A stretch of DNA of 64,000 bases from Candidatus Fervidifonticultor secundus (GTDB lineage Bacteria > Sysuimicrobiota > Sysuimicrobiia > Sysuimicrobiales > Humicultoraceae). Below are positions 22,365 through 26,989 of this stretch, one piece after another. The stretch is taken from positions 101,715-165,714 of the forward strand of contig JAVKIP010000006.1 of assembly GCA_031459385.1 (NCBI GenBank), read 5' to 3'. The notes beneath the pieces are model-generated. The model made no database searches. It worked only from the letters and a program-made list of their open reading frames with translations, and was not told the DNA's origin. Within the stretch, counting starts at the first letter, position 1, and the number at the start of each line of letters is the position of its first letter. A program made the position numbers and the translations under genes.

Positions 22365-22811
22365 ATGGTGGCGCTGATCGAGCTCATCGTGCGCGCGGTC
22401 ATCGCGACAGGCGACCGGATTCTCGTGGCCCGCAAGCCCGGCGCTGCCCACACCTTCCTCCCCGGCGGCCACGTCGAACCGGGGGAGCCGGCCGCGGCCG
22501 CGGTGCTGCGCGAGCTGCGCGAGGAACTGGGGATGACCGGCCGGGTCGAGCGGTTCCTGGGCGCCGTCGAACACGGGTGGAGGACCGCCGACGGAGCCGC
22601 CCATGAGCTGAACCTGCTCTTCCTGGTCACCGCCCCCGGCCTGGGGCTGGCCACCCCACCCGTGCCGCGGGAACCGCACCTGCAGTTCTTCTGGCACCCG
22701 CTCGACCGCCTGAACGACGCGCGGCTGGAGCCGTGGATCCTTCGAACGGTCCTCCCCGGCTGGCTGGCCTCCGACGGGCCGGGGTGGGCGAGCACCCTGG
22801 CCGTGCAATAA
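22365..22811 (+). CDS. NUDIX hydrolase
   Basis: PGGHVEPGEPAAAAVLRELREELG Nudix box. Confidence 0.9.
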   Translation: MVALIELIVRAVIATGDRILVARKPGAAHTFLPGGHVEPGEPAAAAVLRELREELGMTGRVERFLGAVEHGWRTADGAAHELNLLFLVTAPGLGLATPPVPREPHLQFFWHPLDRLNDARLEPWILRTVLPGWLASDGPGWASTLAVQ

Positions 22812-22863
22812 ACTGGCCGCCCGGGCCCGTCTCTTGGGACAGGCAGCACCCTGGGGGGGACGC

Positions 22864-23462
22864 ATGGCCGAACTTTCGTCTGTACCCCGTACGGGCTTCG
22901 AGGACGTCGTCACGCCCCACCTCGACTACCTGTACGCCGTGGCCGTGCGGCTGTGCGGCGACCGGACGGCCGCCGAGGACCTCGTGCAGGAGGCGCTGTT
23001 GCGCGCATTCCGGGGCTTTGGAGGCCTGCGCAATCGGGACCGTCCCCGCCCGTGGTTGACGCGCATCTCACCCGAGTCTACTTCGACCGCGTAGACGCCG
23101 CGACGCACGCGCCGGCGGTCGAGCCCGGCGACGACCGCTTCGATCTCTTCGACAAGATCGTCGAGGAAGACCCGTTCCCGTACTCCGACCGGGTGCACCT
23201 CGACTTCCTCGAGCTGTTCGACGACGCCCGCATCATCGAGGTCCTGCAGCGGGTGCACCCTCTGCACCGCGCGGCCATGATCCTCGCTTACGTCCATGAG
23301 TACAAGGCACGCGAGATCGCGGAGATGACCGGCCGGCCGTTGGGCACGGTGCTGTCCTGGCTGCACCGCGGTCGCCGCCAGCTGGAGCGCGAACTCTGGG
23401 AGTACGCGGAGCACCACCGGCTCCTCACGCCGCACCGGGAGGCTTCTCGTGATCAGCTGTAA
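22864..23462 (+). CDS. ECF RNA polymerase sigma factor (SigR/SigH-like), with a 1-nt frameshift near 23066
   Basis: Region 2 AEDLVQEALLRAF..WLTRI in one frame; region 4 EIAEMTGRPLGTVLSWLHRGRRQL in another; one extra C (ATC CTC ACC) joins them. Confidence 0.85.
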
Positions 23463-23688
23463 GGACGCCGTAGCACGGCTGTGGGCGTACCTCGACCGCA
23501 ACCTCGGGCGGGTCGAGGAGCGCGAGATGGAAGAGCACCTCGGGCTGTGCCGCCACTGCTGCGGGGAGCTGGAGTTCGCCCGGCAACTCCGCGAGCGGTT
23601 GCGGCAGGAGGGCCCGGCAGTGACGCTGGCCCCGGAGGTCCGCCGCAAGCTCGAGGCGTTCATCACGAACCTGGGAGGACAGCGATGA
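23449..23688 (+). CDS. Zinc-binding anti-sigma factor (zf-HC2, RsrA-like)
   Basis: MISC...LWAYLD...EEHLGLCRHCC HxxxCxxC motif; overlaps the sigma gene. Confidence 0.9.
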   Translation: MISCKDAVARLWAYLDRNLGRVEEREMEEHLGLCRHCCGELEFARQLRERLRQEGPAVTLAPEVRRKLEAFITNLGGQR

Positions 23689-24508
23689 GCGCCCACGTCC
23701 CCCACCCGGCGGTGCGCGCCACCGACGACCTGCTGGACCAGGAGGGGATCCGGGACCTCGTCCGGCAGGCCTACCGCGCGGTCATCGGGACCAGGACCAG
23801 CGTGGCCGAGCGCCTCTACACGCCGGAGCAGCTGCGCCTGCTGCCCCAGGGCGCCCTCGAGCAGGCGCTGGGCGTGGGCAACCCCGTGCGCGCGGCCGCG
23901 CTTTGCCCCGGCGAGGTCGTCGTCGATCTGGGCTGTGGCGGCGGGATCGACACGATCCTGGCCGCGCACGCGGTGGCCCCCGACGGCAGGGCGATCGGGC
24001 TGGACATGCTGCCGGAGATGCTGGCAGTGGCCGCTGCCAACGCCCGGGCCGCGGGCGTGACCAACGTCGAGTGGCTGCGGGGGAGATCGAGGCGATCCCG
24101 CTGCCCGAGGCCAGCGTGGACGTGGCCATCAGCAACGGTGTCCTGAACCTCTCGCCGCGCAAGTCGCGGGCGTTCGCCGAGGTGTTCCGCATCCTGCGGC
24201 CGGGCGGTCGCATGGTGGTAGCGGACATCGTCGTCGACGAGGACCTGCCGCCGCAGGTGCTCACCAGCGCGGCGGCCTGGGCGGGCTGACTCTCGGGCGC
24301 CCTGGCGGAGCGTGTCTTCGTCAGCAAACTCCAGAAGATCGGGTTCACCGAGATCGCACGCGGCGAGGAGCTGCCCTTCGGCATAGACGAGTGCGAGCAG
24401 TACCCGCTGTTCACCCCGGAGCTGATCGCGCTCATGCGCCGGCTCATCCCGCCGCAGCGGCAGCCGCACGTGGCGCGGTCGGTCATCTTCGCGGCGCGGA
24501 AGCCGTAG
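23685..24508 (+). CDS. ArsM-like SAM methyltransferase, probable selenoprotein (UGA 24287-24289), with a 1-nt frameshift in the G run at 24079-24083
   Basis: LGVGNP, VVDLGCGGGID, GLDM, GEIEAIPLPEASVDVAISNGVLNL, WAG-UGA-LSGALAE...GF...ARKP; frame stays open 72 more codons to TAG at 24508. Confidence 0.8.
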
Positions 24509-24569: not shown

Positions 24570-25139
24570 ATGACCTGGGTGCGCACGCTGGACGAGGACG
24601 AGGTTGCAGACGAGCTGCGGCCGCTCTACGAGGCCGAACTGGCGCGGCTGGGCTTCGTCATGGAGGCCACGAAAGCGCTCTCGCTGCGGCCGCGGCTGGC
24701 GGCGGCCCTGGAGACCTTCACGGCAGCAGTAAAACAGGAGTCGGCGCTGACGCCCCAGGAGCGTCGCCTGATCAGCCTGCTCGTCGCCCATCGCCTGCGG
24801 TCGACGTACTGCGTGCTGGTCTACGCCGTAGACGTCGAGCGCGACCTGGGCGGGCTGGCGCGCGTGCGAGCCGTGCTGCGCGACTACCGCACCGCCGGCC
24901 TGACCCCGCGGGAGGTGGCGATCCTCGACTACGCCCTGGCGGCCGCCACCGGGCACCCCACCGCCGAGCACGTCGCCGGGCTGCGGGCTGCGGGACTGGA
25001 CGACGGCGCCATCATCGACGTGGCGGTCTGGGCCAACCTGCGGGCCCTGCGCAGCCGGGTCTATGAGGCGCTGGGCGTCGAGACCGACCCGTTCTTCCTT
25101 GAGCAGGCCGACCTGGTCGAGGCTGTCGCAGCGCGGTAG
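24570..25139 (+). CDS. Carboxymuconolactone decarboxylase/AhpD-like (peroxidase-related) protein
   Basis: LTPQERRLISLLV...STYC (CxxC reduced to SxxC), LRAAGLDDGAIID; typical length. Confidence 0.75.
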   Translation: MTWVRTLDEDEVADELRPLYEAELARLGFVMEATKALSLRPRLAAALETFTAAVKQESALTPQERRLISLLVAHRLRSTYCVLVYAVDVERDLGGLARVRAVLRDYRTAGLTPREVAILDYALAAATGHPTAEHVAGLRAAGLDDGAIIDVAVWANLRALRSRVYEALGVETDPFFLEQADLVEAVAAR

Positions 25140-25170
25140 AGAACGTCAGAGAGAACAGGGGGGATCTGCT

Positions 25171-25563
25171 ATGGCACTGTCACGCAGGCAGCTCCTGAAA
25201 GCCATCGGCGCCACGGCCGCCGGTGTCACCGCGGTCGAACTCGCCAGCGCCGAACTCGTCTCGCAGGCCCTGGCGCAGGTCCGCACCGACACGCTCGCCG
25301 ACCATGCCCTCGCCAACATCCCCGGTGTCACGCGGGTGACGCTGATCCAGGCGGTGCTCCCACCCGGGACCCGCGTCACCACCCCGGCGGGGACGACACT
25401 CTTCTGCTGGATGGTCTCGGGCCAGGCCTATCTCACCCTCGGCGGACAGACCAGACGGTACGGGGTGGGCGAGAGTTTCATCGTCCCCAAGGGCGCCGCG
25501 CGGATCGAGGGAAACGACGCGCGGGAAGACAACGTGCAGCTGGTCTTCTCGATCGCCCACTAG
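25171..25563 (+). CDS. Tat-exported cupin-domain protein
   Basis: LSRRQLLK Tat motif; WMVSGQAYLTLGGQTRRYGVGESFIVPKG cupin strands. Confidence 0.75.
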   Translation: MALSRRQLLKAIGATAAGVTAVELASAELVSQALAQVRTDTLADHALANIPGVTRVTLIQAVLPPGTRVTTPAGTTLFCWMVSGQAYLTLGGQTRRYGVGESFIVPKGAARIEGNDAREDNVQLVFSIAH

Positions 25564-25601
25564 GCGCGCGGGACGCGCACACCACCAGGGAGGTGACGGC
25601 T

Positions 25602-26204
25602 ATGGGGTACGAGCTGGAAGGCGCGCTGCTGGAAGCCTGCTCATGTGCAGCCGTGTGCCCCTGCTGGGTCGGGCAGGACCCCGACGGCGGGGCCTGCAAC
25701 GGGCTCATCGCCTACCATTACGACCGCGGGCAGATCAACGGGGTCGACGTGGCGGGCCTGACCCTGGCCCTGGTCGTGCAGATTCCCGGGAACGTCCTCA
25801 AGGGCAACTGGAAGGCCGTGGTCTTCGTCGACAGCAGGGCCACGCCGCAGCAGAAGGAGGCTATCCTGGCGGCGCACACGGGGAAGCTTGGCGGACCGCT
25901 GGCCGACCTGGCACCCCTTGTGGGTGAGGTCCTCGGCGTCTACGACGCGCCCATCGACTTCAGCTTCCATGAGGGCAAGGGACGCATCACGATCGGTGAC
26001 GCGGTGACCAGCGAGATGGAGCCCCTGACGGACCTCCAGGGCCACCCCACGAAGCTCGTCGACAGCATCTTCTCGACCATCCCCGGCTCTGCGGCCTTCG
26101 TCGGCAGAGCGCCCGCGTTCCGGGCCGACGTCCCGCAGCACCGCATCCGATGGGAGTACAGCGGGCGCAACGCGGTGCTGGGGCCGTTCAGCTTCGCCGC
26201 CTGA
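25602..26204 (+). CDS. DUF1326 family protein
   Basis: LLEACSCAAVCPCW...PDGGAC and GNWKAVVFVDSRATPQQ. Confidence 0.85.
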   Translation: MGYELEGALLEACSCAAVCPCWVGQDPDGGACNGLIAYHYDRGQINGVDVAGLTLALVVQIPGNVLKGNWKAVVFVDSRATPQQKEAILAAHTGKLGGPLADLAPLVGEVLGVYDAPIDFSFHEGKGRITIGDAVTSEMEPLTDLQGHPTKLVDSIFSTIPGSAAFVGRAPAFRADVPQHRIRWEYSGRNAVLGPFSFAA

Positions 26205-26989
26205 CCGCCGCCCGGGGCCTGCGCCATGATCGCGCCCTCCGCACGCCCGACGACGCCCGCTGGTACCGGCTGGCGCTGGGGGCCCTGATCGGGTCAGCGT
26301 GGCTCGTCGTGGCGCTGTGGGGCTCCTCACCATACGCGGGCTGGCTCGGCCACCGGGAGACCGGGGCGGATACCCCCTCCCCGGTCTTCCGGCTCGCGGT
26401 CTTCGTGGGCGGGTGGACCGTGATGACGGTGGCCATGATGCTGCCCGGCAGCCTGCCGCTGGTGAACCTGTTCCGCCGCGTGGTCGCGCAGCGACCCGAC
26501 CGCTGGGGATTGCTGCTGCGGCTGGGCGCAGGCTACCTGGGCGTCTGGGCGGGGTTCGGTGCGGCGGCGTTCGCCGCCGACCTCGTCGTGGTGCACGCAC
26601 TGGTGGAGCGGCTGCCCTGGTTCGCAGCCCTCCTCCCGCCCGGGGTGCTGCTGGCCGCCGGCGCCTTCCAGTTCACGGCGCTGAAGGAGCGCTGCCTGAG
26701 CCAGTGCCGCTCGCCGCTGACCTTCCTGGCGGGCCACTGGCGGGGTGTCCACCCCGGTCGCGACGCGTGGACGCTGGGGCTGCACCACGGCCTGTTCTGC
26801 GTCGGCTGCTGCTGGGCACTCATGCTGCTTATGTTCGCCGTGGGCATCGCACACCTGGGGTGGATGCTGGCGCTGGGCGCCATCATGGCCGCCGAGCGCA
26901 CGCTCCCGTGGGGCGACCGGCTCACCCGGCCCGTGGGTGCGGCGTTGGTCGCCTGGGCGGTCCTCCCGCAGGCAGCGCGCCTCCTCTGA
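26201..26989 (+). CDS. DUF2182 predicted metal-binding integral membrane protein (start uncertain)
   Basis: WTVMTVAMMLP, QFTALKERCLSQCRSP, GLFCVGCCWALM. Confidence 0.85.
   Translation: MTAARGLRHDRALRTPDDARWYRLALGALIGSAWLVVALWGSSPYAGWLGHRETGADTPSPVFRLAVFVGGWTVMTVAMMLPGSLPLVNLFRRVVAQRPDRWGLLLRLGAGYLGVWAGFGAAAFAADLVVVHALVERLPWFAALLPPGVLLAAGAFQFTALKERCLSQCRSPLTFLAGHWRGVHPGRDAWTLGLHHGLFCVGCCWALMLLMFAVGIAHLGWMLALGAIMAAERTLPWGDRLTRPVGAALVAWAVLPQAARLL

Follow-up and report, generated by a model that had tools for sequence, protein, structure and literature searches.

The methyltransferases of the ArsM/AS3MT type, which methylate arsenite, have been described as containing four conserved cysteines, all of which are required for the first methylation of As(III), with Cys224 alone holding dimethylarsenite, DMAs(III) (PMC6138428), and arsenite is reported to be bound by three cysteines, methylarsenite by two and dimethylarsenite by one (PMC3877260). 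Selenocysteine (Sec)-containing members are also on record: arsenite S-adenosylmethyltransferase is named as a selenoprotein (PMC9312934, PMC2398784), and a compilation of known selenoproteins (PMC13188914) lists arsenite methyltransferase (NF008823) with one Sec in a UxxG motif, citing Fomenko et al. (2007), together with three fusion families of ArsM-like selenoproteins, citing Haft and Tolstoy (2025). The locus described here lies in a stretch of 64,000 nt from Candidatus Fervidifonticultor secundus (contig JAVKIP010000006.1), which is referred to as a whole as the window and whose positions serve as coordinates throughout. It contains a gene for an ArsM-like, S-adenosylmethionine (SAM)-dependent methyltransferase with an internal TGA codon, preceded by the genes of a sigma factor with extracytoplasmic function (ECF) and of a zinc-binding anti-sigma (ZAS) factor. 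With a probability of roughly two in three, this arrangement represents a broken three-gene stress module, in which the methyltransferase gene of the window is a recently inactivated selenoprotein gene. The relevant features are as follows.

22864-23073, + strand: N-terminal (region 2) piece of an ECF sigma factor (Pfam Sigma70_r2, 48.6 bits)
23070-23462, + strand: C-terminal (region 4) piece of the ECF sigma factor, in a shifted frame (Pfam Sigma70_r4_2, 44.6 bits)
23449-23688, + strand: soluble ZAS-type anti-sigma factor with an HxxxCxxC motif (zf-HC2, 34.3 bits)
23685-24083, + strand: N-terminal 133 codons of the ArsM-like SAM methyltransferase, with GVGNP and the SAM motif DLGCGGG (NF008823, 99.9 bits)
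24079-24083, + strand: run of five G, site of a 1-nt deletion breaking the frame (from comparison with relatives and metagenome contigs)
24083-24508, + strand: C-terminal 141 codons of the methyltransferase in the -1 frame, with SNGV, WAG-U-LSGAL and the stop codon TAG (NF008823, 115.4 bits)
24287-24289, + strand: putative Sec codon UGA at the UxxG site, corresponding to the Cys224 position of CmArsM (from orthologues and Cys-containing homologues)
24302-24324, + strand: predicted bacterial Sec insertion sequence (SECIS) hairpin with a 9-bp stem and the loop CGUGU (from covariation and specificity for TGA forms)
24570-25139, + strand: AhpD/CMD-like 'peroxidase-related' protein (TIGR01926, 81.5 bits at a cut-off of 81.8; Pfam CMD, 33.1 bits)

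As judged from comparative sequence data, the TGA at 24287-24289 is a genuine Sec codon of the methyltransferase, because the Sec machinery is present in the genome, TGA alternates with Cys codons in homologues, the downstream sequence is conserved and a hairpin tracks the TGA. This is what a first-pass annotation, made from the letters of the window alone, had proposed, and the positions on which it relied are found in the sequence, namely the ATG at 23685, the five-G run, the TGA, and 72 open codons between the TGA and the TAG at 24506-24508. The genome look-up that it called for was positive for all of selA, selB, selC and selD, each of which scores above its curated cut-off in the source genome (G000; 59 contigs, 97.6% complete). 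On contig C12, the gene for tRNA-Sec (selC; 64.5 bits, anticodon tca according to ARAGORN) forms a cluster together with selA (548.9 bits) and selB (367.6 bits), and selD (388.2 bits) is located on contig C1. The latter gene (within C1:102538-106461) contains a TGA and itself codes for a selenoprotein (…VACAG-U-ASKLPPGEL…), with a hairpin carrying the loop CGUGC after its UGA.

A search of 41 related genomes including G000 gave 20 matches in 19 genomes, each with exactly one TGA. The 19 rows from the 18 relatives match the C-terminal half over all 141 aa with 46-94% identity and are conserved up to the C-terminus, and all 12 of the closest orthologues (67-94% identical) are single open reading frames (ORFs) of about 275 aa apart from the same TGA, with the motifs GVGNP, (S/A)NG(V/T) and WAGU(L/I)SGAL. 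When an intact orthologue from the same genus (P0003) was used as query for a database search, 97 of the best 120 matches turned out to be proteins of 193-221 aa ending at the TGA, several of them named 'methyltransferase domain-containing protein [Armatimonadota bacterium]', and the remaining 23 were full-length proteins with an invariant Cys at the Sec column; Val64 and Gly152 are also invariant in the alignment with these 23 homologues (24 sequences). Among the GTDB species genomes, 80 loci yielded 81 motif rows, in which the Sec column is occupied by TGA in 12 and by TGC or TGT in 69 cases. The TGA forms belong to Armatimonadota, Limnocylindria (Chloroflexota), Methylomirabilota and Actinomycetota, and carriers of the Cys form include Streptomyces, Kribbella and Jiangella. 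As far as these alignments tell, no thiol-type residue other than this Sec (or Cys) is conserved in the methyltransferase family.

The predicted SECIS element consists of a stem formed by 24302-24310 and 24316-24324 and the apical loop CGUGU at 24311-24315, which begins 24 nt past the U of the UGA. Its nine base pairs are kept in 98.3% of the cells in 13 orthologues and in 95.3% of the cells in 19 sequences from four phyla, with compensatory changes at two pairs (G-U to C-G in four Limnocylindria and G-C to C-G in one genome). None of 500 shuffles reached the observed covariation score, a control that can be inflated by the kinship among the sequences. The contrast between TGA and Cys forms provides a stronger test: all 21 distinct TGA forms make eight or nine of the nine pairs, whereas the 69 Cys forms make 4.9 on average, and only one of them (from bacterium HR32) reaches eight. 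The first-pass annotation had also placed a SECIS-like element after the TGA, and a conserved hairpin indeed exists there. The outer stem that it had drawn, pairing GCUGAC (GCTGAC at 24285-24290) with GUCAGC (GTCAGC at 24320-24325), is present in the window but poorly kept, with 85.9% pairing in 13 orthologues and unpaired cells in three of six pairs, and was rejected as SECIS.

Some further observations concern this region. The HR32 gene (contig around 2254) is the closest Cys form, with a TGC codon and 79% identity, and seems to have been converted from Sec to Cys recently, its SECIS persisting as a relic. Other Sec-containing paralogues, namely the Nitriliruptorales copies and the second paralogue in locus L113 of an Actinomycetota metagenome-assembled genome (MAG), carry an unrelated stem (CCCUGC/GCAGGG) with the loop CGUG(C/U); the recurrence of this loop on different stems, here and in selD of G000, adds to the evidence for Sec decoding. 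Finally, the Logan contigs of all four hot-spring metagenome runs that cover the locus break or branch at 24301-24307, just past the TGA, where short contigs with five to seven differences are also present; this suggests that related strains or species sharing the conserved SECIS region occur in the samples.

The affiliation of the protein with ArsM is evident from several comparisons. Both halves match Methyltransf_31 (44.6 and 44.3 bits), and the best NCBIfam match of both is the arsenite methyltransferase model NF008823, followed by the ArsM-like selenoprotein models NF041537, NF047649 and NF041536. Solved ArsM chains match at E values of 2e-16 (C-terminal half) and 1.7e-7. As the first-pass annotation had stated, the TGA falls on a known ArsM Cys site: its counterpart in the solved structures is the Cys of ...GEC(L)(A/G)GAL, which is the Cys224 position of CmArsM. 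The replacement of the other canonical Cys sites was likewise recognized correctly. SNGV corresponds to SNCV in 5evj and 8xt7, placing Gly at the Cys174 position of CmArsM, and Gly is found at the SNC position in 80 of the 81 motif rows; the N-terminal half aligns to residues 62-125 of CmArsM, with the Val of GVGNP opposite Cys72 (YGCGS, 4kw7). With respect to Cys44, residues 1-73 of the window protein and 1-83 of the intact orthologue are free of Cys. Because the Cys224 position alone is kept and the other three ArsM cysteines are absent, the family may be regarded as a variant subfamily rather than as classical As(III) methyltransferases. A substrate other than As(III), as proposed by the first-pass annotation, seems reasonable, since three of the four defining cysteines are missing; it would need one selenolate or thiolate ligand, and an outside reductant would replace the internal disulfide cascade. 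The scores against NF008823 are 240.2 for the intact orthologue and 233.8, 238.7 and 221.3 for three Cys forms, at a cut-off of 263. The source genome additionally codes for a canonical ArsM of 264 aa on contig C16 (28800-31200, 376-1682; NF008823, 270.2 bits), which carries CC, GCG, SNC and ACLAGA motifs and directly follows an ArsN2 acetyltransferase gene (138.2 bits); true arsenic methylation therefore appears to be encoded elsewhere than in the window.

These features define the relation to the known systems. With the canonical ArsM/AS3MT enzymes (CmArsM, PDB 4fr0/4kw7; Chlamydomonas, 5evj), the window protein shares the class I SAM methyltransferase core, with gap-free alignment of the motifs around the three C-terminal sites, but it keeps only one of the four catalytic cysteines, in the form of Sec, and is found without an ars operon context. 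With the published arsenite methyltransferase selenoprotein (PRK11873/NF008823), as far as it is described, the clade shares the fold, the position of Sec, the Sec/Cys pairing and a SECIS just downstream; it differs by the absence of Cys at the Cys44, Cys72 and Cys174 positions (with Val and Gly invariant at the last two), by scoring below the NF008823 cut-off and by its tie to the ECF sigma/ZAS pair. The ArsM/AhpD selenoprotein NF041537 and the related NF041536 and NF047649 also have an ArsM-like domain with Sec in a UxxG motif, and the AhpD-like gene immediately downstream of the methyltransferase in the window lineage echoes the NF041537 fusion. However, the window protein is unfused, lacks the CxxU of the AhpD domain, has a single Sec and scores far below the cut-offs of the three models (180.2 versus 510 for NF041537, 161 versus 575 and 171.2 versus 460 for the others). 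Sec at the UxxG site of ArsM-type proteins, represented by U-L-S-G in the window, is thus already known, and the notion of a hidden, new kind of selenoprotein in the first-pass annotation has to be given up in view of the listing in PMC13188914 and the three NCBIfam models for ArsM-like selenoproteins. The single-Cys/Sec subfamily and its linkage to sigma and anti-sigma factors were not found in print; the work of Haft and Tolstoy (2025) may cover the clade.

An ECF sigma factor and a ZAS anti-sigma factor are encoded upstream of the methyltransferase in 90 of 98 loci from several phyla; six of the eight exceptions belong to a distant clade and two are truncated contigs. In the window, the best NCBIfam match of the region 4 piece of the sigma factor is the SigH-like TIGR02947, and the anti-sigma factor (...EEHLGLCRHCC...) combines an N-terminal Cys with the HxxxCxxC zinc motif. 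The methyltransferase start overlaps the anti-sigma stop in the sequence ATGA. This arrangement resembles the SigR-RsrA switch in that the anti-sigma factor is soluble and has both HxxxCxxC and an N-terminal Cys, the sigma factor is SigH/SigE-like, and the two genes are adjacent and translationally coupled. It differs in that the anti-sigma factor scores below the RsrA cut-off (TIGR03988, 38 versus 62.5 bits), that the apparent target is one downstream methyltransferase, and that the sigma gene is frameshifted in G000. The SigR-type promoter GGAAT-N16-19-GTT is absent upstream of the operon as well: two matches occur in the window, none of them near the operon, with about one expected by chance. 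Among the 14 mentions of 'methyltransferase' in the accessible part of the ECF classification supplement (PMC7826278), none refers to a module of sigma factor, ZAS and SAM methyltransferase (at +2); the O-methyltransferase described there for ECF14 is positioned differently, at -1.

This copy is most likely a recently inactivated gene, that is, a frameshifted pseudogene, in a module whose sigma gene is broken too. After the five-G run, the ArsM-like reading resumes one base back: relatives have 15 nt at this site (CTGCGCGGCGAGATC and similar), reading CTG CGC GGC GAG ATC or synonymous variants (10 by pattern match, five by alignment), whereas the window has 14 nt. In the sigma gene, which is a single ORF in relatives (e.g., at loci L028 and L030), five relatives read CATCCTC near 23067 versus CAT-CTC in the window, by which the frame is lost between regions 2 and 4. 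Among six aligned genomes, the two deletions occur in G000 alone. When compared with a genome of the same genus (G002), which served for synteny and codon comparison over 261-30643 (about 30 kb), isolated 1-nt gaps in genes are found only at 23068, 23448 and 24080, with the window short of one base each; the gap at 23448 lies at the sigma stop/anti-sigma start and is harmless, and those in the sigma gene (23068) and the methyltransferase gene (24080) are the only frame-breaking ones. Over 22800-24307, Logan contigs of the four metagenome runs (depths of about 7-39) match the window without any mismatch or gap. The missing G appears to be real rather than an assembly slip, because the contigs of four runs reproduce it, the sigma gene has its own deletion and no other frameshift occurs in the 30 kb, in which an error-prone assembly would have shown more. 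The first-pass annotation had restored one G as the correction of an error, a step at odds with the retained five-G run in these contigs and with the second frameshift in the sigma gene.

Some points weigh against an inactivated gene or against parts of the evidence. The Logan data consist of contigs instead of raw reads and all stem from a single study, possibly the source of the assembly itself, which leaves some room for a systematic or platform-specific error or for minority variants with six G. Among the 274 codons, those differing from G002 comprise 63 synonymous and 19 non-synonymous ones, indicating that the inactivation is very recent or the gene is still in use. In folding energy, the hairpin does not stand out from shuffled sequences (z 0.00, with equally stable folds in 86 of 200 shuffles), a value left out of the SECIS evidence as uninformative alone. 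Furthermore, the zero-frame codon past the run is AGA, which accounts for none of the 138 Arg codons in the neighbouring ORF of 1507 codons, and some protein might be rescued through -1 slippage on G_GGG. It may accordingly be asked whether the gene is intact and codes for a working selenoprotein of about 274 aa, the missing G and the missing sigma base being sequencing or assembly errors. The position of the deletion within a homopolymer, the codon differences resembling purifying selection and the common origin of all runs would fit, but this is unlikely in view of four separate runs agreeing at both sites, a sigma deletion outside any long homopolymer and the otherwise gap-free synteny. Even less probable appears a low-level product formed by -1 slippage of tRNA-Gly on C_GGG_GGA, with the ribosome paused at the rare AGA. 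GGG would re-pair perfectly one base back, and the coding sequence is otherwise well kept; yet no relative shows this arrangement, all of them having an ordinary in-frame Gly-Glu, no stimulatory structure came to notice (no search aimed at one was made), and the sigma gene is frameshifted as well, at a site (AUC|UCA) which is not slippery, so transcription is doubtful.

Two further alternatives concern the family as a whole. That its members are true As(III) methyltransferases, in which Sec merely takes the place of Cys224, as it does in ArsM selenoproteins already published, would agree with NF008823 as the best family match, with ArsM/AS3MT as the best solved relatives and with a canonical ArsM beside the module in the actinobacterial locus L113. 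It is improbable nevertheless, since three of the four cysteines described as required for As(III) methylation in PMC6138428 are absent, with invariant Val and Gly at two of the sites, all four members tested score below the curated cut-off, and G000 codes for a canonical ArsM elsewhere, accompanied by ArsN2. As to the TGA, the short database proteins ending at this codon might suggest an ordinary stop and a product of about 201 aa, corresponding to the N-terminal protein called by public annotation. This has hardly any probability, given the 72 codons past the TGA conserved at the protein level (up to 94%), the Sec forms in four phyla, the Cys forms reading straight through, the TGA-specific hairpin and the presence of the Sec machinery.

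According to the preferred reading of a broken stress module with a recently inactivated selenoprotein gene, the locus would consist of an ECF sigma factor, a soluble zinc-binding, RsrA-like ZAS anti-sigma factor and an ArsM-like SAM methyltransferase. Decoding of the UGA as Sec would be assisted by the hairpin at 24302-24324, and Sec would occupy the Cys224 position of CmArsM, the site holding the metalloid next to SAM, in a Sec/Cys-polymorphic relative of arsenite methyltransferase that probably lost the other three catalytic cysteines. Methylation of a substrate needing a single selenolate or thiolate ligand would then take place under thiol-reactive stress, with the anti-sigma factor as the sensor. 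In G000, the module would be broken by the deletions at 24079-24083 (methyltransferase) and around 23067 (sigma factor). A wider proposal, put forward more tentatively, is that methyltransferases with a single 'Cys224' ligand (Cys or Sec) under an ECF sigma/ZAS switch form a distinct system in multiple phyla, which acts on a single-ligand substrate under thiol-reactive stress, uses an external reductant and has gained or lost Sec repeatedly. Candidate substrates may then be dimethylarsenite, converted to volatile trimethylarsine, or another soft electrophile or chalcogenide, and the AhpD-like neighbour may be an example of an external reductant replacing the internal disulfide cascade of ArsM.

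The AhpD-like protein of the window is encoded by a separate gene and has a single Cys; homologues occur in nine of the 98 loci, the window included. It is linked to the methyltransferase in this lineage only and is a possible redox partner. A separate cupin-like ORF with a twin-arginine translocation (TAT) signal is located at 25168-25563, and at 25593-26989 a DUF1326 gene (182.3 bits) overlaps the gene of a PpoB2/DUF2182 'copper chaperone' membrane protein (205.1 bits); the latter two also come after the module in a few relatives (eight and five of the 98 loci, respectively). A cupin gene follows the methyltransferase in the relative L028, and C-terminal cupin fusions are present in some family members of about 386-390 aa (P0012, P0015, P0097; L058, L059, L061, L079, L096, L116).

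Additional ArsM-like paralogues were also observed. In 10 of 26 sampled loci (L061, L066, L070, L074, L093, L105, L110, L119, L122, L113), the next gene is a tandem second paralogue, which carries the motif HFHTG and has Gly at the SNC position as well as one single Cys, located in …LWT(G/D)CIAGGL. At L113 of the Actinomycetota MAG, the Cys of the tandem paralogue is replaced by TGA, with a CGUGC-loop hairpin, so both single-site methyltransferases use TGA there, and a canonical ArsM (GCGNP, SNCV, YVGCIAGA) is encoded just upstream of the sigma gene of the module, around 675, which represents the only direct link to arsenic seen. A second, Sec-only ArsM-like clade of about 50% identity is present in the relatives G027, G012, G009, G011, G038 and G029 (…AAYAG-U-LAG(A/T)LAE…); its genes carry a separate 8-bp SECIS hairpin (loop GGA) that shows covariation, and sigma and anti-sigma genes are absent upstream.

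Public records systematically cut this selenoprotein at the UGA, leaving stubs of about 200 aa among most of the best database matches, and this truncated annotation leads to an under-count of selenoproteins in Armatimonadota, Limnocylindria and some Actinomycetota. A conserved one-Cys/Sec methyltransferase wired to a redox-type sigma/anti-sigma pair is a candidate for a stress-induced methylation unlike the classical methylation of arsenite, and as Cys forms exist in cultured Streptomyces, Kribbella and Jiangella, the family can be tested. The window gene itself is probably dead, which would make the module dispensable in this hot-spring population.

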